A DNA stretch of 64,000 nucleotides from Candidatus Wildermuthbacteria bacterium (GTDB taxonomy: Bacteria; Patescibacteriota; Minisyncoccia; Minisyncoccales; UBA10102), in the NCBI GenBank assembly GCA_016181405.1, contig JACOZJ010000003.1, forward strand, positions 42,749-106,748. The letters run 5' to 3'. Below the pieces are notes generated by a model. The model made no database searches, was not told the DNA's origin, and was given only the letters and a program-made list of their open reading frames with translations. Below, in pieces: positions 51,544-59,113 of the stretch (the first letter of the stretch is position 1; each line of letters begins with the position of its first letter). A program made the translations under genes and the position numbers.

Positions 51544-52233
51544 ATGAGTTTATCATCACTCGAAAAGGCACTCGACATTTCATTCAAAAATAAAGACTTA
51601 CTCCAGCAAGCATTCGTTCACCGTTCGTATCTCAACGAAAATCGAGACTTCCATCTTCAACACAATGAAAGGCTCGAGTTTCTGGGAGATGCGGTGCTCG
51701 AACTGGTTGTTACCGAATATCTCTACTCAAAGTACCCCGATAAGCCGGAAGGTGAACTTACTGCCTGGCGCGCCGCGCTGGTAAACACCAAAATGCTTTC
51801 TTCCATTGGCAGGGAACTGAACTTTAGCGATTACTTACTGCTCTCGCACGGAGAGTCAAAAGAAGAAGGCAAGGCAAGAGACTATATTCTGGCAAACACG
51901 GTAGAAGCATTCATTGGTGCCTTATTCCTTGACCAGGGCTTGAAAAACTCCGGAAAGTTTATTACAACATATATACTGTCCAAACTTAAAGAAGTGCTGG
52001 AGGACGAACTATTTTTAGACTCAAAATCCCACTTCCAAGAATTAGCGCAGGAAAAAGCGGCCATTACCCCCACGTACATCGTATTAAAGGAATGGGGGCC
52101 TGACCACGCGAAGCATTTTTACATCGGCGTATATCTGGATAAAGAACTGGTGGCACACGGAGAGGGCTCTTCCAAGCAGGAAGCAGAACAAAACGCAGCC
52201 AAAAATGCCCTCGCGGAGAAAAACTGGAAATAG
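51544..52233 (+). CDS. rnc: Ribonuclease III
   Basis: ...NERLEFLGDAVLELVVTEYLY... plus a C-terminal dsRBD (KSHFQELAQ...). Confidence 0.93.
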   Translation: MSLSSLEKALDISFKNKDLLQQAFVHRSYLNENRDFHLQHNERLEFLGDAVLELVVTEYLYSKYPDKPEGELTAWRAALVNTKMLSSIGRELNFSDYLLLSHGESKEEGKARDYILANTVEAFIGALFLDQGLKNSGKFITTYILSKLKEVLEDELFLDSKSHFQELAQEKAAITPTYIVLKEWGPDHAKHFYIGVYLDKELVAHGEGSSKQEAEQNAAKNALAEKNWK

Positions 52234-52241
52234 TAAATATT

Positions 52242-52706
52242 ATGTTAACAATTCGTTTATTTCGCGTAGGAAGGAAAAATCAGCCGGCGTTTAAGATTGT
52301 CGTCTGCAATAAGCAAAACGCCGCTTCAAGGGGACGCTTCGTGGAGGAAGTGGGTTTTTACGATCCCTTAACTAAACAGCGCAACCTAAAAGGGGATAGG
52401 GTAAAATACTGGTTATCCGTAGGCGCAAAAGCTTCTCCCACGGTTCACAATATGCTTGTGACAGATAAAGTGGTGGAAGGCTCCAAAATCGCCAAACACA
52501 AACTCTCCAAGAAGCCTGCCTCGCCAGCAGGGGAGTCTGTAGCGTCTGAAACAAACCAAAGCGGGAAGTCAGCCGATACGGCCCCGGAAGCACCAAAAGC
52601 CCAGGAATCAGCTCCACAAAGCGCTCCTGCTCAAGAAACCACCCCTGAAGCGCCAAAACCCGCTGAAGAGCCTAAGCCTGCCGAAACGCAGGAAAAACAG
52701 CCTTAA
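52242..52706 (+). CDS. rpsP: 30S ribosomal protein S16 with a Pro/Ala/Glu-rich C-terminal extension
   Basis: MLTIRLFRVGRKNQPAFKIVVCNKQNAASRGRFVEEVGFYDP... Confidence 0.93.
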   Translation: MLTIRLFRVGRKNQPAFKIVVCNKQNAASRGRFVEEVGFYDPLTKQRNLKGDRVKYWLSVGAKASPTVHNMLVTDKVVEGSKIAKHKLSKKPASPAGESVASETNQSGKSADTAPEAPKAQESAPQSAPAQETTPEAPKPAEEPKPAETQEKQP

Positions 52707-52770
52707 AGCTCAAACTCCTCAATTCTTGTCCCGCCGTAGCTTTAAGCCAAGGCGGATAGCCTTATACACT

Positions 52771-52795
52771 CCCACCAACCCTTTGGTGGGTTCTT
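52771..52795 (+). terminator. rpsP terminator cccacca-accctt-tggtggg plus TTCTT
   Basis: 7-bp GC stem followed by a short T-run. Confidence 0.5.
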
Positions 52796-52822
52796 GACAT
52801 TTTTGGGGAAGTATGCTATACT
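52794..52822 (+). promoter_or_regulatory. Consensus promoter TTGACA-N17-TATACT
   Basis: Perfect -35 element, 5 of 6 in the -10 element, 17-nt spacer. Confidence 0.65.
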
Positions 52823-53164
52823 GTGGCTAACAATAAAATACTGGTTTTGCGGGTGGAAGGAGAGAGCCACCGGCAAATAATAAAGACACAGACGATTGCA
52901 CATATCACAATTACCCAATCAGCTCTCCCCAAAAGGAGAGTTGGTTGTTTAGAGAATGTCCTGCCTCTGCGAATATAAAGATACTCCCGGAGGTAGCACA
53001 TTCAAAACATCACAGCACCTTAACCATCAAGCAAGGGGGAAGAGGAACAGAAAATTCTTCCCCCATACCCTTCAGCCCACCACGAGTATCGAATGGCGAA
53101 TTGAAGGGTAACGATAGCACCCAAAAATTTCCTTCCTGTAAAGGGAAGGGGAAAGGAGAGAGCC

Positions 53165-53275
53165 ATGGTGCACCGACCTCCACGCCCGGAGACGGTGATG
53201 ACGCTTCCGCTGCCGCGTTGCGGCTGCGGGGCACGCATCGCCCCGGGTGGCTACTGTACTGGAAAGTGCAAGTAG
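53165..53275 (+). CDS. Cys-rich micro-protein (36 aa: MVHRPPRPETVMTLPLPRCGCGARIAPGGYCTGKCK)
   Basis: Translated by hand. GGAAAGGAGAGAG SD 3 nt upstream. CxC...CxxxC pattern. Confidence 0.45.
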   Translation: MVHRPPRPETVMTLPLPRCGCGARIAPGGYCTGKCK

Positions 53276-53283
53276 CCCTCAAC

Positions 53284-53388
53284 GGAGTCGGAGGAAAAGC
53301 ACTCATTGATTGCACTCATAGCATACTCTCCGACTCCTTAAGTTTAAGACCGTTGCGAAAAGCGCAGATCATAGATTTAAGGAGTCGG
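53284..53388 (+). promoter_or_regulatory. Three-segment alternative-hairpin element (1:2 versus 2:3)
   Basis: ggagtcggag (53284-93) pairs with ctccgactcc (53328-37). ccgactccttaa (53330-41) pairs with ttaaggagtcgg (53377-88). The two pairings are mutually exclusive. Confidence 0.5.
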
Positions 53389-53420
53389 ATAGATTGCGCA
53401 CCTTATGAAAGGAGGACGCC

Positions 53421-53606
53421 ATGGAAAGGCTCAATCAATCCCAAATCCGGGCCGCCCATTGGAAGATTGGAGTGAGGGGACCCGTAAACGGGTTACTCAC
53501 TCCAAGGAAACTCGCCCGGGTTTACGGAGTTAGTCCGAGCGAGACAAGAATCATCGTGTTGTCGGTATTCGTGTACCGCGCGCGGGAATGGCTTTGCCCC
53601 CGATGA
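53421..53606 (+). CDS. Small putative helix-turn-helix protein (61 aa)
   Basis: AAAGGAGG SD; ...LTPRKLARVYGVSPSETRIIV... looks like an HTH. Confidence 0.5.
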   Translation: MERLNQSQIRAAHWKIGVRGPVNGLLTPRKLARVYGVSPSETRIIVLSVFVYRAREWLCPR

Positions 53607-53872
53607 GAGCGTGCACAATCCCAGCAACCAAGCCCTGGCCCTGCGAGATCTACCAAGATTTCGCAGGGCACCCCAACTGAATCCCGAATTCATTTCGAGA
53701 TTCAACAGGGGTTAGTACATAAAAATCCATTCGTCTTCAGCGATTTGGCCAAGGCACTTGACTGAATCGTTGGAGACGAGAAGTATGGTGAGATGCGATT
53801 CGTCGAAGACCTCTTCTTGAGTGTCGAAGAACGACAAAGAAAACTCACGAAGAGTGCCAAGAAAGGCAGAAA

Positions 53873-54307
53873 ATGTCTATGTCTATACCGACGATGCTGG
53901 CGGGGCTGGCGGGGCTGGTGGTAGCGGGGATGCTGGTGGGGATGCTGATCTCCATCATCGTATGGACGGATCGGCGCCCGTCGTTCAAGACCGTGTTTGG
54001 TTTCAAGCCTCAGAACCGCAAGAGGCCTTGGTCGTCAGCGCTTCGTGCAGCGGAACAGAAAAAGGTGGCTACTGTGCTGAGTCGGTTAGCACAGACCTTT
54101 GCCACGTGCGACAAGACCGAGAGGGAGATGAAGATTGAACTCCCTGCGGATGGGGAGTTCGAGAAATGGCATACGGAACAGCGTAAACGCCTCGCGGATT
54201 TGAGGCGGGAGCTGAAAACCGCGAAGGAAGGTTTCTGGCGGGCCTATGCGCTCGCCGAGAAACAGGAATTCAGTGTACAGCGGAAGTACACTGACTACCT
54301 CCCCTAG
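53873..54307 (+). CDS. Hypothetical membrane-anchored protein (N-terminal TM helix, charged coiled C-terminus)
   Basis: MSMSIPTMLAGLAGLVVAGMLVGMLISIIVW... Preferred over the overlapping 53821-54138 frame. Confidence 0.55.
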   Translation: MSMSIPTMLAGLAGLVVAGMLVGMLISIIVWTDRRPSFKTVFGFKPQNRKRPWSSALRAAEQKKVATVLSRLAQTFATCDKTEREMKIELPADGEFEKWHTEQRKRLADLRRELKTAKEGFWRAYALAEKQEFSVQRKYTDYLP

Positions 54308-54345
54308 CGCGACCACTAAGTAGAAGGATGCGTCTCACCACGCAT

Positions 54346-54578
54346 TCTGGGCGGGAGAACAAAGGTTCAATCCCTTTCTCTCCCGCCCCCATACTTGAGC
54401 TCATGAATAAGTTCGTGGGCTGAAGAGTGGATAGCACTTTCAAAACTACAGCCGCTTCATAGCGGCGAAATGCCCTTCCGTAGCTTTATGCGAAGGAGGA
54501 CAGCTCGCTGCTATGGAAAGCGGCCTTCCGTAAACCCTCACCCTCAGCAAAAGGAGAGGTAGGAAGAGGAGAACAAGA
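54346..54578 (+). promoter_or_regulatory. Structured intergenic RNA module, copy 2
   Basis: Stem-loop 54346-54389 with a TTCAATC loop followed by CCA. GATAGCACTTTCAAAAC box. CATAGCGGCGA (54458-68) pairs with TCGCTGCTATG (54505-15). Confidence 0.6.
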
Positions 54579-54962
54579 ATGACCATGAAATCTTTCGCGG
54601 CATTGGACTGGACGTTTTCAGGCCCGGCGCGCCGGGTTACTCTCGAGTTCCCGTGCGAGACCCCTGAGGAGGCGCGGGTCCTCCTGCGGGCGGAGCATGA
54701 GGCCCGCAAGGACAAGGCATTGGAGGAAATCAAGGCCCATCCCCGCATGAAGCAGATTGGATGGGCAGGGGATCACGTCACTCCGGTAATGGGGCCCGTG
54801 CCCCCTTGGGAGGATTCCCGGTACCCAGGGTCCCTCTGCGTCGGCATCCCCAACGTGGATGCCGAGGTCGGGGTCCAAGTCGGATCCGGGATGGGAGAGA
54901 CGGACCGGATATACCGCATTGAGGCGGTGCCGGGGGGCGGCACGCGCGCCGTGCGTGTCTGA
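54579..54962 (+). CDS. Hypothetical protein (127 aa)
   Basis: GGAAGAGGAG SD; no recognisable motif. Confidence 0.55.
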   Translation: MTMKSFAALDWTFSGPARRVTLEFPCETPEEARVLLRAEHEARKDKALEEIKAHPRMKQIGWAGDHVTPVMGPVPPWEDSRYPGSLCVGIPNVDAEVGVQVGSGMGETDRIYRIEAVPGGGTRAVRV

Positions 54963-55090
54963 CGCAAGAGAAGACCAGGCTGGGGGTGAAGCCGGCCAAA
55001 AAGAATAGTTTCCCAGTATCATGAAACTGGGGGCGCTGACCACGGCGCCATACAGCAGTGGGAGGTCGTTCTGCCCGAGGCGGAAGGACC

Positions 55091-55366
55091 TAAGGCGAGA
55101 GAGGAAGGTTAATCCCTTTCTCTCCCGCCCCATACTTGAGCTCATGAATAAATTCGTGGGCTGAAGAGTGGATAGCACTTTCAAAACCACAGCTGCTTCA
55201 TAGCGGCGAAATGAACATTTCCGTCTCATCGACGGATATGCCGACGAGGCATAAACCAGAAACGCTCAAGATGCATGAAAGAAATGATTTGGAGTGGAAA
55301 ACAGAGTTAGTGTTCAGCTCGCTGCTATAAAGTGGCAAATCTTGAGCCTGAGAGCAGGAGGAGAAC
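55091..55366 (+). promoter_or_regulatory. Structured intergenic RNA module, copy 3
   Basis: The first ~120 nt are about 95% identical to copy 2. ATAGCGGCGA (55200-09) pairs with TCGCTGCTAT (55319-28). The insert shares blocks with copy 1. Confidence 0.6.
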
Positions 55367-55561
55367 ATGAAAAAAAACGCCTTGTCGACGATCTTCCTAG
55401 TCGGTTTTTCCCTCGTGGGCGCTTTCGGGGGCGCCCTCGGAGGGGTCAGTGTCAGCGCTCTCATTGGTATTAACCCAAACACTGCCGCCCTATGGGGCGG
55501 TATCGTCGGTGCCATCGCTATGACGGCGGTGGCGGTCCTCAGCATCAATAGGTGGAAATAA
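55367..55561 (+). CDS. Glycine-zipper small hydrophobic protein (64 aa)
   Basis: GGAGGAG SD; ...LVGAFGGALGGVSVSALIG...LWGGIVGAIAMTAVAVL... Confidence 0.65.
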   Translation: MKKNALSTIFLVGFSLVGAFGGALGGVSVSALIGINPNTAALWGGIVGAIAMTAVAVLSINRWK

Positions 55562-55591
55562 AACGCAAGGAGATAACCTTTCGTGCAATAA

Positions 55592-55640
55592 GGTAGGGAG
55601 GCGAACGGTTCTATTCCGCTTCCTCCCTACCACTTTCTTG
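55592..55640 (+). terminator. Stem-loop ggtagggagg..cgg-ttctatt-ccg..cctccctacc, same architecture as the module stem-loops
   Basis: 10-bp stem, internal loop, 3 bp and a 7-nt loop, followed by ACTTTCTT. Confidence 0.5.
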
Positions 55641-55731
55641 CGTACAGCTGTGATCTACTCTCTCCTCCGCCTCACCGGCGGATCCATCATAGCTGTACAC
55701 AAGAGAGAAATACTTTTCCACTTCTCAAATA

Positions 55732-55759
55732 TTGACAGGATGGCACGCAGTGCTAGACT
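55732..55759 (+). promoter_or_regulatory. Promoter TTGACA-N16-TAGACT (TG immediately upstream of the -10 region)
   Basis: Read directly from the sequence. The track ORF 55732-55935 begins at the TTG of this -35 box. Confidence 0.55.
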
Positions 55760-55944
55760 ATCCTAATTTCACAGCATGCACCCTCGAACGTGATGCGGAA
55801 ATGGGGGATGGATTGGCAAGGAGTATTGATTCTTTGGCAATCCCGTCCCTGTTTCGTACCACAATTCAGCGGCAGGGAGGAGAGGAGGTACAACTTGAAA
55901 GTCTAAAATACAAATCAACGCGTTCTTTTTCATAAACGAGGAGG

Positions 55945-56097
55945 ATGACGATGCAATCGAATAGAGGGAGAATCCGGGGATGCCTGGGTCAGACCTATGC
56001 CTCTCCGATTCAGCCGAAGCGCTTTCGGCCGCAGCGCCCCCGCGCGTCGCATCGCCGGAAGCCCATCGTCAAGATCATCCTGATCTCCAACACGTAA
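55945..56097 (+). CDS. Highly basic 50-aa protein (MTMQSNRGRIRGCLGQTYASPIQPKRFRPQRPRASHRRKPIVKIILISNT)
   Basis: Translated by hand. GAGGAGG SD. An 11-bp stem hairpin follows at 56121-56157. Confidence 0.45.
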   Translation: MTMQSNRGRIRGCLGQTYASPIQPKRFRPQRPRASHRRKPIVKIILISNT

Positions 56098-56172
56098 CCT
56101 CGTTGGCGCCCGATAACCCCAACAACCCCTCGGATTGTGGTACATCCGAGGGGTTCATCATTTGTGTGGGGG

Positions 56173-56200
56173 TTGACACTATTTTTTGATCGTGTATACT
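56173..56200 (+). promoter_or_regulatory. Consensus promoter TTGACA-N16-TATACT
   Basis: Read directly from the sequence. Confidence 0.6.
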
Positions 56201-56206
56201 CAATCG

Positions 56207-56342
56207 TACATAAATATGAACTCACGCTATCTTTTCTGCATGTGTCTTTGTGCCAGCCCAGAGAAGAGTCTGCGTGTTTCGCGTTAAGACATTTTGTTAT
56301 TTGAAACCAGCCAGCCTCTTCTCTTCAGGGGCTGGTTTTTTG
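56207..56342 (+). ncRNA. Candidate ~135-nt sRNA bracketed by a consensus promoter and a strong terminator (contains an SD-less 23-codon ORF)
   Basis: Promoter at 56173-56200. Terminator aaccagcc...ggctggtt plus TTTTT at 56305-56342. Confidence 0.4.
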
Positions 56343-56419
56343 TAGCTTGGCAGAGACTCAAAACCCATTGTGCGTCTCTGCCAGGAAACAATCCTGGAAT
56401 ACAGAAAGGAGAAAGGGAA

Positions 56420-56740
56420 ATGGCCAGAATAATAGGAGTGTTTGAAGGCCCAACTTCCCTACAGGAAGTCTTCGGCAGAAACGTGCCGAACAGAAGGTCT
56501 TTTGAATCGTACGAAGACCTTCTCAAAGCCCTCAAGGAGGGGCTGCTTGACGGCATCGTCATACCGGAGAATCTCGTCAGCAGAACTTTCGTGGCAGCGC
56601 AAATGGGGTTGATACAGTGCGTGCGTGGATTCGCGTATATCAAGCCGTCGCTCGAGATACGGGTCCGCCGCGCGCGAAGCCGCATGCACGAACGCCGCGC
56701 TTGGCGAGAGTATACGCCGCCCCGGCGCCTTCCCTGTTAA
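56420..56740 (+). CDS. Hypothetical 106-aa protein resembling the N-terminal part of a prephenate-dehydratase or periplasmic-binding-protein type-2 fold (fragment?)
   Basis: AAAGGAGAAAGGG SD; MARIIGVFEGPTSLQEVF...SFESYEDLLKALKEGLLDGIVIPENLVS... Confidence 0.45.
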   Translation: MARIIGVFEGPTSLQEVFGRNVPNRRSFESYEDLLKALKEGLLDGIVIPENLVSRTFVAAQMGLIQCVRGFAYIKPSLEIRVRRARSRMHERRAWREYTPPRRLPC

Positions 56741-56759
56741 CCTGCACCTTACAACGTAG

Positions 56760-56792
56760 AAGCCCCGCCTTTATGGCAGGGGCTTTCTTTTT
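56760..56792 (+). terminator. Intrinsic terminator aagccccgcc-tttat-ggcaggggctt plus TTCTTTTT
   Basis: GC stem with one bulged A, followed by a T-run. Confidence 0.65.
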
Positions 56793-56796
56793 GGGG

Positions 56797-56825
56797 TTGA
56801 CAAACCCGAGAGACAGAAATAACAT
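56797..56825 (+). promoter_or_regulatory. Promoter TTGACA-N17-TAACAT upstream of khpA
   Basis: Read directly from the sequence. Confidence 0.5.
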
Positions 56826-56869
56826 AAAGAAAAGTCGAATAGCAGAAAGTTACAGAATTCAGAATTCAA

Positions 56870-57178
56870 ATGGCAGAAGAGACACCTCAGTACCAAGCAT
56901 TGCTCGAGTATATCGTGAAATCCTTGGTGGACAATCCGAACGACGTAACGGTAGAACGCAAAGTAGATGAAATGGGCGTACTGCTTTCTTTGAAAGTGCA
57001 CGCTCAAGACATGGGTCAAATAGTCGGCCGACAGGGTTCTACCGCGCGAGCAATTCGCACATTGGTTCGCATCGCGGGCCTCAAAGCTCACGCACGGGTA
57101 AACCTCAAGATTGAAGAGCCAGAAGGCGGCCGCGGCCCCCGAAAGAGCGAAGAACCTCTTGCGGGGTTGAACATCTAA
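56870..57178 (+). CDS. khpA: KH-domain RNA-binding protein (KhpA/YlqC, UPF0109)
   Basis: ...LLEYIVKSLVDNPNDVTVERKVDEMGVLLSLKVHAQDMGQIVGRQGSTARAIRTLV... Confidence 0.88.
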   Translation: MAEETPQYQALLEYIVKSLVDNPNDVTVERKVDEMGVLLSLKVHAQDMGQIVGRQGSTARAIRTLVRIAGLKAHARVNLKIEEPEGGRGPRKSEEPLAGLNI

Positions 57179-57243
57179 ACGAAAATTAGAACTTGAAATC
57201 TGCAAGAACGGTGTTACGATAGGGTAATGCCGTTTTTGTTTAT

Positions 57244-57945
57244 ATGAAATTCGATATCATCACCATATTTCCGCAAATTTTTGATTCCTATTTTGCCGAG
57301 TCACTTTTGAAACGCGCCCAAGAAAAAAAACTTCTTGAGATTCGCGTACACAATCTGCGCGATTGGACCGAAGACTCCCACAAAACAGTGGACGACAGCC
57401 CATTCGGCGGGGGATTGGGAATGGTAATGAAAATTGAGCCGATCTACAAGGCCGTAATAGGCCTAAAGTCTCAAGGATCAAACTCCAAGGCCCAAGCAAA
57501 CCCTAAGTTTCCAAACCTCAAACAACGCGTTATCCTTTTCACGCCGAGGGGAAAGAAATTTACGCAACGAAAGGCGCACGAATATGCAAAGCTCGACCAA
57601 CTTATTATGATCTGCGGCCGATACGAGGGAGTCGATGAGAGAGTAGGGAAGTATATTGCAGACGAGCAACTCTCTATAGGGGATTATGACTTAATGGGTG
57701 GGGAGCTTCCTGCAATGATTGTAGTGGAAACTGTTTCGCGCTTAATTCCCGGCGTTATTGGCAAAGAAGAATTTCTGAAAGAGCATATAAAAGATGGGGG
57801 ATTTATAGAATATCCACAGTACACGCGGCCTGAAGTATTTGTGGATGCAAAAAGGAAAAAACGAACTGTACCACAAGTATTGCTATCCGGAAATCACAAA
57901 AAAATTGAAGAGTGGCGGCAAAGACACGAAAAGCTCATCAAATGA
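57244..57945 (+). CDS. trmD: tRNA (guanine37-N1)-methyltransferase
   Basis: MKFDIITIFPQIFDSYF...DDSPFGGGLGMVMK...CGRYEGVDERV... Confidence 0.93.
   Translation: MKFDIITIFPQIFDSYFAESLLKRAQEKKLLEIRVHNLRDWTEDSHKTVDDSPFGGGLGMVMKIEPIYKAVIGLKSQGSNSKAQANPKFPNLKQRVILFTPRGKKFTQRKAHEYAKLDQLIMICGRYEGVDERVGKYIADEQLSIGDYDLMGGELPAMIVVETVSRLIPGVIGKEEFLKEHIKDGGFIEYPQYTRPEVFVDAKRKKRTVPQVLLSGNHKKIEEWRQRHEKLIK
57464..57525. repeat. Possible degenerate family-B-like insertion in trmD (encodes KSQGSNSKAQANPKFPNLKQ)
   Basis: Extra loop relative to the usual TrmD ...AV....VILLSP... spacing. The peptide resembles the thrS insert. DNA similarity is weak. Confidence 0.35.
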
Positions 57946-58465: not shown

Positions 58466-58539
58466 AGGGGTGTGGTGAAGTGGTATCACGGAGGTCTCCA
58501 AAACCTTCGTCGGGGGTTCGATTCCCTCCACCCCTGCCA
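58466..58539 (+). tRNA. tRNA-Trp (CCA anticodon), 3' CCA encoded
   Basis: Acceptor AGGGGUG/CACCCCU-G-CCA, anticodon loop CUCCAAA. Confidence 0.9.
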
Positions 58540-58546
58540 CCGACGT

Positions 58547-59113
58547 ATGGCTACACTTTCCATAGTTATCTATCCCGCAAAAATCCTCAGACAAGAGGCG
58601 GTAGAAGTTTCGCCAATTACTTCCGAGATCAAACGCCTCATCCCACAGATGATCGAAACGATGTACGGAAGTCAGGGCATTGGGCTCGCCGCTCCCCAAG
58701 TTGGCATATCAAAGAAACTTATTATCGTAGAAACTTCTGATGACCCGCGCGCTACCGTACGAGAAACGACCCGACACATACGTGGCAAACCCGCCTTGCC
58801 GAATCGAGGCAGGCCTCTTGCGTTTTTGAATCCGGTTATTGTAAAAAAATCAAAGGAAACAGCCATCGATGAAGAAGGATGCTTAAGTCTTCCGGGAATT
58901 TTTGTTCCGGTAAAACGAGCTGAATCCATAGAAATTCTCTGCCAAACAGCAGACGGCTCGAAGGTAAGGGTTGAAGCCGGAGGCCTTACTGCCAGAATTT
59001 TTCAGCATGAAATTGATCACCTCAACGGGAAGCTTATTATAAACCACCTTGATCCGCTTAAGAAACTCAAGGTTCGTCGCCAACTCAAAGAACTCGTTCA
59101 CAAAACGAGATGA
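58547..59113 (+). CDS. def: Peptide deformylase
   Basis: ...GIGLAAPQVG...EGCLSLPG...QHEIDHLNG... The ATG is 8 nt after the tRNA-Trp CCA. Confidence 0.92.
   Translation: MATLSIVIYPAKILRQEAVEVSPITSEIKRLIPQMIETMYGSQGIGLAAPQVGISKKLIIVETSDDPRATVRETTRHIRGKPALPNRGRPLAFLNPVIVKKSKETAIDEEGCLSLPGIFVPVKRAESIEILCQTADGSKVRVEAGGLTARIFQHEIDHLNGKLIINHLDPLKKLKVRRQLKELVHKTR

Follow-up and report, generated by a model that had tools for sequence, protein, structure and literature searches.

A conserved promoter-to-terminator unit tied to an orphan gene in Candidatus Wildermuthbacteria, with a possible role as a leader/attenuator

The stretch of DNA analyzed here, referred to as the window, consists of 64,000 nucleotides (nt) from a metagenome-assembled genome (MAG) of Candidatus Wildermuthbacteria, which belongs to the Candidate Phyla Radiation (CPR, Patescibacteria). 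Our analysis is focused on a short promoter-to-terminator unit located at 56173-56342 and on the orphan gene that follows it, an open reading frame (ORF) referred to as ORF106. The unit lies inside a variable region between rpsP and khpA-trmD, where the order of genes is rnc (51544-52233), rpsP (52242-52706), a series of short orphan ORFs (52707-56869), khpA (56870-57178), and trmD (57244-57945), with tRNAs, rpmG, def, and mltG beyond trmD. The nearest relatives of the encoded TrmD are from other Candidatus Wildermuthbacteria MAGs, with amino acid identities of 84% and 73% for the loci L001 and L002, respectively; the TrmD of a metagenomic locus, L083, is 78% identical. As described below, the unit is a real, conserved, and previously unclassified leader or small-RNA (sRNA) element that is tied to ORF106. 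All coordinates are window positions and, unless stated otherwise, the features described are on the plus strand.

The unit opens with a sigma-70-type promoter (56173-56200) in which the -35 box TTGACA (56173-56178) and the -10 box TATACT (56195-56200) are separated by a 16-nt spacer and together agree with the consensus at 11 of 12 positions. When both strands of the 64-kb window were scanned, only three sites reached at least 11 of 12 (40287, 52794, and 56173). The transcription start is predicted to be near 56206-56208. The unit closes with a strong intrinsic terminator, T1 (56305-56343), which consists of a stem-loop at 56309-56337 and a T-run at 56336-56341. The stem-loop reads AGCCAGCCTCT / TCTCTTC / AGGGGCTGGTT and has 11 pairs, six of which are G-C, and a loop of seven nt, followed by T6. 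A first-pass annotation made from the sequence alone had described the same promoter, a terminator about 105 nt downstream, and a unit of about 135 nt between them, all of which we confirmed; the hairpin it had delimited (aaccagcc...ggctggtt, 56305-56337) is another register of T1, and the unit is genuine and conserved at ∼130-135 nt. Compared with shuffled controls, the predicted ∼135-nt transcript folds more stably (z = -3.15 in the window, z = -5.6 in the L083 copy). It should be noted that a terminator is not rare here by itself, as a loose scan found 14 in 4.5 kb as compared to 6.0 ± 2.7 expected.

Between the promoter and T1, the RNA is predicted to fold into a long imperfect hairpin, SL1 (56212-56286), which is part of the RNAalifold consensus and encloses the whole of a 23-codon ORF, ORF23. 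The 5' half of SL1, made up of the start-codon region and UCUUUUCUG, pairs with a 3' half that includes CAGAGAAGA, GCGUG, UUCG, and the GUU at the stop codon, such that the start and stop codons of ORF23 both reside in the basal helix. When the 5' domain is folded, SL1 is the minimum-free-energy structure for both the window and L083 copies. Together, SL1 and T1 form the RNAalifold consensus and are the minimum-free-energy fold in three of four copies, namely L083 (-50.3 kcal/mol), L163, and L166. In the window copy, an "extended" fold is better than SL1 plus T1 by 1.8 kcal/mol (-40.8 versus -39.0); we rejected this fold as a conserved switch since it is the best fold in the window only and is ∼10 kcal/mol worse in L083 and L166. 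Across the aligned copies, 95% of SL1 cells are paired and the changes are one-sided but compatible (UG, CG, and UA at one pair); no double compensatory change was found among them. SL1 is joined to T1 by an A/U-rich linker (56287-56308) that alignments A4, A5, and A7 show to be the least conserved part of the unit, with insertions and deletions between copies. T1 is kept in all copies and occurs in four sequence types that share an invariant 5' arm and loop, CCAGCC(T/G)CTTCTCT, and differ in the 3' arm. One position shows compensatory pairing (UG, GC, and UA across copies), and the L083 T1 is a perfect 13-bp stem.

Downstream of T1, an inverted repeat (I4) forms the hairpin H2 (56346-56385; CTTGGCAGAGAC / GTCTCTGCCAGG), which is predicted in four of four post-T1 folds and whose 3' arm, TCTCTGCCAGGAAA, is invariant. 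H2 is overlapped by a small alternative hairpin, H3 (56381-56397), with the sequence CCAGG-N7-CCTGG. The Shine-Dalgarno (SD) sequence of ORF106, AAAGGAGAA (56405-56413), has GGAG/GAGG equivalents in L083, L163, and L166 and is free in the post-T1 folds. ORF106 itself (56420-56740) corresponds to the NCBI hypothetical protein HYT49_01870, which is encoded on a 264-kb contig of the Wildermuthbacteria MAG. The module ends with a second terminator, T2 (56762-56793), which was detected by the terminator scan and is conserved in L083, L163, and L166, and the khpA promoter (56797-56825) follows directly. A direct repeat, GGGTTGAC, at 56170-56177 and again at 56794-56801 falls in the -35 regions of both the unit and khpA and thereby brackets the whole module. 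Neither the promoter scan nor alignment A4 revealed a sigma-70-like promoter between T1 and the ATG of ORF106.

The first-pass annotation had proposed that relatives be examined for conservation of the unit and its reading frame. A metagenome scan located the unit in L083, with 81.5% identity over 227 nt, and look-ups of ORF106 homologues added L163-L165, L166 (which is more diverged), L167, and L168-L175; these include Rifle groundwater assemblies. Structure and reading frame are both kept in L083, L163, L166, and L168-L175, and the lack of conservation that would have refuted the annotation was thus not observed. In total, at least five distinct metagenomic haplotypes, all from one narrow clade, carry the unit, and without exception they show the arrangement promoter, unit, T1, H2, SD, ORF106 homologue, T2, and khpA. 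Two further Logan contigs are 100% identical to the window and carry no information on conservation. The promoter hexamers and their 16-nt spacing are identical across all homologous copies, while ahead of the -35 box the window and the L083 group carry unrelated DNA. Since promoter, ORF length, and terminator are retained in independent metagenomic relatives while the DNA upstream is unrelated, a chance arrangement can be ruled out. Between the window and L083, the identity is 82% for the unit, 74% for the spacer from T1 to the ATG, 59.5% for the coding DNA of ORF106, 86% for khpA, and 78% for trmD, which indicates that the leader is under much stronger nucleotide-level constraint than ORF106.

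The unit is absent from both of the nearest species representatives. The alignment of L001 with the window covers 55686-56177 and continues from 56793; L001 has two GGGGTTGAC copies of its own, separated by 45 unrelated nt, and is without the whole module. In L002, the upstream terminator hairpin is followed only by a segment equivalent to 56369-56416, a relic consisting of the H2 3' arm, H3, and the SD, and then by the khpA promoter. The unit and ORF106 are therefore missing together in both loci. A blastn-short search of the window and L001-L080 found no second copy of the unit, and a covariance model (R1) searched against the window and 81 loci (1.07 Mb) retrieved only the known copies (E < 1e-28, with the next best at E ∼0.09); the unit is thus single-copy and confined to a narrow clade. 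Two conserved motifs of the unit had no match in viral contigs, and a viral origin was rejected on these grounds. With respect to known RNA families, six tRNAs were the only matches in the window to Rfam 15 at gathering thresholds, and the unit matches no family. Relaxing the threshold to E of up to 10 over 55300-57300 gave nothing credible on the unit; the best match was Phe_leader (E = 9.3), with 17.8 bits as compared to a gathering score of 55 and covering essentially the terminator alone.

ORF23 extends from the ATG at 56216 to the TAA at 56287 (stop included) and encodes the possible leader peptide MNSRYLFCMCLCASPEKSLRVSR. As the first-pass annotation had stated, it is the sole ORF inside the unit. 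That annotation had also remarked on the lack of an SD, and indeed none is present upstream of 56216; this says little about translation because trmD, rnc, khpA, and mltG, among the many bona fide genes of this genome, likewise lack an SD. In addition, -10-like boxes occur 6-11 nt before an ATG elsewhere in the window (TACAAT before 50012 and TATAAT before 10628). Together, the SD-less genes and these boxes suggest that leaderless or SD-independent initiation is frequent in this organism. For ORF23, the -10 box ends 10 nt ahead of the ATG in three copies (L083, L163, and L166) as compared to 15 nt in the window, whose predicted 5'-untranslated region (5'-UTR) is 5 nt longer, and so the mRNA would not be uniformly leaderless. 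The start, the stop position (TAA or TAG), and the 23-codon length are the same in all copies; the L083 group encodes MNARYLFCMCLSTSPEKSLRVSS and L166 encodes MITSCLCCMCSATSPKKRLRVSY. Codons 5-12 contain a cluster of two to four Cys codons, a Cys-Met-Cys at codons 8-10 is invariant, and the C-terminal half, SP(E/K)K(S/R)LRVS, is conserved.

The codon-level signal for translation of ORF23 is ambiguous. The probability that the frame would stay intact by chance is ∼0.32 for L083 and ∼0.13 for L166, and the polymorphisms within the L083 group are synonymous in three of three cases, one of which (CTT to CTC) breaks an SL1 pair. A comparison of the window with L166 points the other way: differences at the three codon positions number 7, 6, and 5, without third-position bias, 11 codon changes are non-synonymous and one is synonymous, and the amino acid identity is at random expectation. 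Moreover, frame +3 is also free of stops in all copies, and the location of the ATG and stop codon in the basal helix of SL1 could alone explain why they were retained.

ORF106 shares 47-51% amino acid identity with its homologues P0002-P0004. Single-sequence and two profile searches of 5.8 billion proteins placed ORF106 homologues in only four clusters at 90% identity, and an exhaustive hidden Markov model (HMM) search of 1.84 billion representatives returned only the family's own three. Further HMM matches (E ∼1e-5) were heterogeneous and weak and were judged spurious. ORF106 and its homologues have no match in Pfam, NCBIfam, PADLOC, or PHROGs. The AlphaFold2 model of ORF106 has a predicted local distance difference test (pLDDT) score of 78, and a Foldseek search with it gave prephenate dehydratase as the top match together with many lobes of MetQ-type methionine binders, at E ∼0.03-0.3 and template modeling (TM) scores of 0.4-0.5. 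The model is thus weakly similar to one lobe of a type-2 periplasmic-binding fold. A C-terminal Arg-rich helix spans residues 78-98. A single periplasmic-binding-type lobe with a long Arg-rich helix would be an unusual and very small architecture, and it is predicted here in one narrow clade. It is tempting to speculate from the model that ORF106 might bind RNA or a ligand.

The first-pass annotation had considered the unit to be stand-alone, and here our findings depart from it. In every copy, H2, a strong SD, and an ORF of 104-106 amino acids follow within ∼80 nt of T1, no sigma-70-like promoter intervenes, and L001 and L002 have lost the unit and ORF106 jointly. Because the unit always precedes an orphan gene without its own promoter, we prefer to read it as the promoter-proximal 5' leader/attenuator of ORF106, which would also yield a terminated RNA of ∼130 nt; going by the sequence comparisons, we consider the chance that this is correct to be about even. 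The architecture, i.e., a promoter, a structured leader with a short ORF, an intrinsic terminator, and a gene lacking its own promoter, is that of an attenuator. In the pathway that we propose, transcription would begin ∼7 nt past TATACT and SL1 would form from the first ∼80 nt. Past the A/U-rich linker, T1 would halt most polymerases and the ∼130-nt RNA would be released, such that H2, the SD, and ORF106 would be present on read-through transcripts alone. Since only read-through RNA would include ORF106, T1 would set the expression of ORF106 and would probably regulate it by transcription attenuation. We infer that read-through of T1 is regulated, and likewise what triggers it.

The leading candidate for the trigger, which we put forward tentatively and with a good deal less confidence than the leader/attenuator assignment, is a ribosome translating the Cys-Met-Cys ORF23. 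In all copies, the purine block of SL1, AGAGAAGAG, has two possible partners, namely UCUUUUCUG inside SL1 and the invariant CUCUUCUCU in T1. With a ribosome occupying the 5' strand of SL1, the purine block would be released and become available for pairing with CUCUUCUCU. This scheme follows a trpL-like 1:2 / 2:3 / 3:4 logic, with the Cys codons placed on or just past segment 1. That the 5' arm and loop of T1 are invariant while the 3' arm varies, together with the complementarity to the purine block, points to a second pairing role for the CCAGCC(T/G)CTTCTCT part of T1. Translation of ORF23 is favored by the kept length and frame (chance ∼0.32 x 0.13), the three of three synonymous polymorphisms in the L083 group, the Cys cluster, an ATG 10 nt past the -10 box in most copies, and the frequency of SD-less genes. 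Alternative triggers are binding of the leader by the Arg-rich helix of ORF106, i.e., autoregulation, or a fixed, unregulated leak through T1.

The candidate trigger can be compared with two known types of attenuator. Like the trpL/pheL/hisL type, the locus combines a strong promoter with a short ORF enriched in a single rare amino acid (two to four Cys in 23 codons), the regulatory codons of which are on or just past segment 1. It also has a purine block that could pair either upstream or with the terminator, and an intrinsic terminator that precedes the structural gene with no sigma-70-like promoter between. The 1:2 and 2:3 complementarity is kept in all copies, and stalled-ribosome models disrupt T1 in two of four. 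Unlike that type, the unit has no clean antiterminator, as its alternative helix still pairs the 3' arm of the terminator, the stop codon of ORF23 comes after segment 2, and the downstream gene is an orphan without a known link to Cys metabolism, its single lead being the weak fold similarity to periplasmic-binding lobes such as that of methionine-binding MetQ. The second comparison is with the polycysteine leaderless short ORFs of mycobacteria, where ribosome stalling at Cys codons remodels the leader and where control is translational, with the downstream ribosome-binding site sequestered in an RNA duplex (Canestrari et al., bioRxiv 10.1101/834739). This analogue lends some support to a ribosome trigger, as both systems place a Cys-rich, SD-less short ORF at or near the 5' end of the transcript and upstream of an operonic gene. 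In our system, however, a strong terminator lies ahead of ORF106, the Cys codons do not form a run but are interspersed (C-M-C), the window mRNA would not be strictly leaderless by its predicted start, and the phylum is unrelated. Sequestration of the ORF106 SD by the mycobacterial mechanism was rejected because it is inconsistent between copies.

Several observations weigh against the leader/attenuator assignment or its proposed trigger. No clean antiterminator is conserved: the "extended" helix pairs upstream CCAGCCC with the 3' arm of T1 and therefore still abuts the U-tract, where it may itself terminate. When a stalled ribosome is modeled as a mask, the T1 end becomes unpaired for the window and L163 copies, whereas it does not for L083 and L166. 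The SD of ORF106 is not consistently sequestered, as its partners differ in each of four full-leader folds, and the start codon of ORF23 is paired in SL1. The codon-position counts, the 11 to 1 ratio of non-synonymous to synonymous changes, the random-level peptide identity to L166, and the open +3 frame all argue against a translated trigger. Covariation is thin, with one double-compensatory pair and a score that is not significant on four sequences, where 99 of 500 shuffles reach it; with ten rows, the paired fraction of 96.3% exceeds that of every shuffle, but the rows are close relatives in a model-fitted alignment. Lastly, ORF106 could have a promoter of a type outside the scan's recognition.

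The strongest rival is that the unit encodes an independent trans-acting sRNA of ∼130 nt that base-pairs with other mRNAs, with ORF106 expressed via leakage through T1 or from an unrecognized promoter. The layout of a strong promoter, a 5' hairpin, a single-stranded A/U-rich linker, and a strong terminator is typical of such RNAs, and the unit is better conserved at the nucleotide level than the neighboring coding gene. Both alternative folds also retain a helix beside the U-tract, so termination seems robust and not switchable. Against these points, the linker, which is the usual site of a seed, is the part that is least conserved and contains insertions and deletions; furthermore, ORF106 accompanies the unit wherever it occurs and is missing wherever the unit has been lost, the scan found no promoter for ORF106, and the unit is single-copy in a very narrow clade. 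Judged from the alignments and folds, we regard an independent sRNA as possible but on the whole unlikely. Small RNAs derived from 5'-UTRs arise by premature termination, e.g., the riboswitch-derived SreA and SreB of Listeria, and the unit resembles them in being a terminated leader of ∼100-200 nt that could act in cis, by attenuation, and in trans. It differs from the riboswitch-derived examples in lacking a recognizable ligand-binding aptamer fold and any Rfam match.

A second rival holds that ORF23 encodes a functional Cys-containing micro-protein and is the first gene of a bicistronic unit with ORF106 on a leaderless or nearly leaderless mRNA. The same features that favor translation would fit this explanation, i.e., the start, stop position, and 23 codons kept in all haplotypes, the conserved SP(E/K)K(S/R)LRVS half and Cys-Met-Cys, the synonymous L083-group polymorphisms, and the SD-less genes and -10 boxes 6-11 nt before an ATG elsewhere in the window, yet a functional micro-protein sits poorly with the L166 comparison, in which non-synonymous changes prevail, third-position bias is missing, and identity is at random expectation. 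The equally stop-free +3 frame, the variable spacing of the -10 box and ATG (15 nt for the window copy, 10 nt elsewhere), the ability of the SL1 basal helix to account for the kept ATG and stop, and the presence of a strong terminator between the cistrons, which is unusual in a simple operon, also count against it. On this sequence evidence, we consider a functional micro-protein to be improbable, and clearly more so than an independent sRNA.

A toxin-antitoxin (TA) system, either type I, with ORF23 as a membrane toxin and an antisense RNA, or type III-like, with an RNA antitoxin, a leaky terminator, and ORF106 as the toxin, is highly improbable: the order of promoter, non-coding RNA, leaky terminator, and small protein gene is superficially like that of type III loci such as ToxIN, and the module is dispensable, as L001 and L002 do without it, and its surroundings are variable and rich in insertions and deletions, but the longest hydrophobic run of ORF23, YLFCMCLCA, is ∼9 residues (the criterion being ∼18 or more) and is replaced by SCLCCMCSA in L166, where the peptide changes freely, no antisense promoter-like site is near the unit (the nearest on the minus strand is at 56934), Tandem Repeats Finder detected no tandem repeats in 56173-56420, no ToxN/CptN/TenpN-like endoribonuclease toxin was identified, as searches with ORF106 and its homologues gave no match in PADLOC, Pfam, NCBIfam, or PHROGs, ORF106 is unrelated to ToxN-like proteins, and no copies occur in viral contigs. 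The type I toxin-like peptide suggested by the first-pass annotation thus does not hold up, given the short hydrophobic run, the lack of an antisense promoter, and the labile peptide. Type I TA, type III TA, defense-system, and phage-family readings were all rejected on the basis of the promoter scan, the database searches, and the repeat search.

The surroundings of the unit have several features of their own. The rpsP-khpA interval (52707-56869) is a hotspot of variation, ∼4.1 kb long in the window and ∼0.64 kb in L002, with a G+C content of 0.51-0.55 versus ∼0.47 and several small, self-contained promoter-ORF-terminator units. The upstream neighbors of the unit vary even between close contigs of the L083 group. 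One element, at 55732-55930, starts with TTGACA-N16-TAGACT (55732-55759), and the ∼150 nt that come next are conserved at 77-80% in L001 and L002; it is located directly after rpsP in L002, has no Rfam match, and contains a long hairpin (∼55793-55865) with a few compensatory pairs as well as a purine-rich GGGAGGAGAGGAGG tract. It is followed by an Arg-rich ORF of 50 amino acids (55945-56097) that is conserved in L001 and not in L002. Right after rpsP, a very strong promoter-like site, TTGACA-N17-TATACT at 52794 (11 of 12 positions), precedes ∼1 kb, to 53870, without a convincing ORF. Patches of this segment are present in distant loci, with 53148-53291 being 77.5% identical to L109 and 52718-52869 being 69.5% identical to L084, and the segment could be a non-coding RNA or a decayed gene. 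A direct repeat of ∼105 nt occurs at 54369-54472 and 55111-55213, 741-742 nt apart (21 nt at 100% and 86 nt at 97%), and each copy starts beside a GGGCGGGAGA...TCTCCCGCCC hairpin. A 28-64-nt piece (54455-54518) is present several times in L049, L132, and L133. Beyond trmD, the longest ORF for peptide deformylase (58472-59113) begins within tRNA-Trp (58466-58539); the true start must be further downstream and is probably the Met of MATLSIVIYPAK...

Little is known about the non-coding RNAs and regulation of CPR/Patescibacteria because almost none have been cultivated, and our limited searches of the literature on CPR small RNAs and leaderless translation found nothing directly relevant. As the kind of element is ordinary, its distribution very narrow, and its target gene an orphan, the finding is useful for annotation rather than surprising. 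More broadly, the rpsP-khpA region of Wildermuthbacteria gathers small, self-contained transcription units that are gained and lost between close relatives. The locus itself is compact, well delimited, and conserved, comprising a promoter, a structured leader, a terminator, and an orphan gene, and it is amenable to heterologous or in vitro work. The fullest version of our proposal, to which we assign a low probability, is a ribosome-sensed Cys-codon attenuator in CPR that would control an orphan protein with a single ligand-binding-fold lobe and an Arg-rich helix, possibly RNA-binding, and would release a stable ∼130-nt RNA. If true, it would be, within our limited literature searches, the first attenuator of such a type described in CPR/Patescibacteria, and it would reveal amino-acid sensing via translation in organisms that are thought to be minimally regulated.

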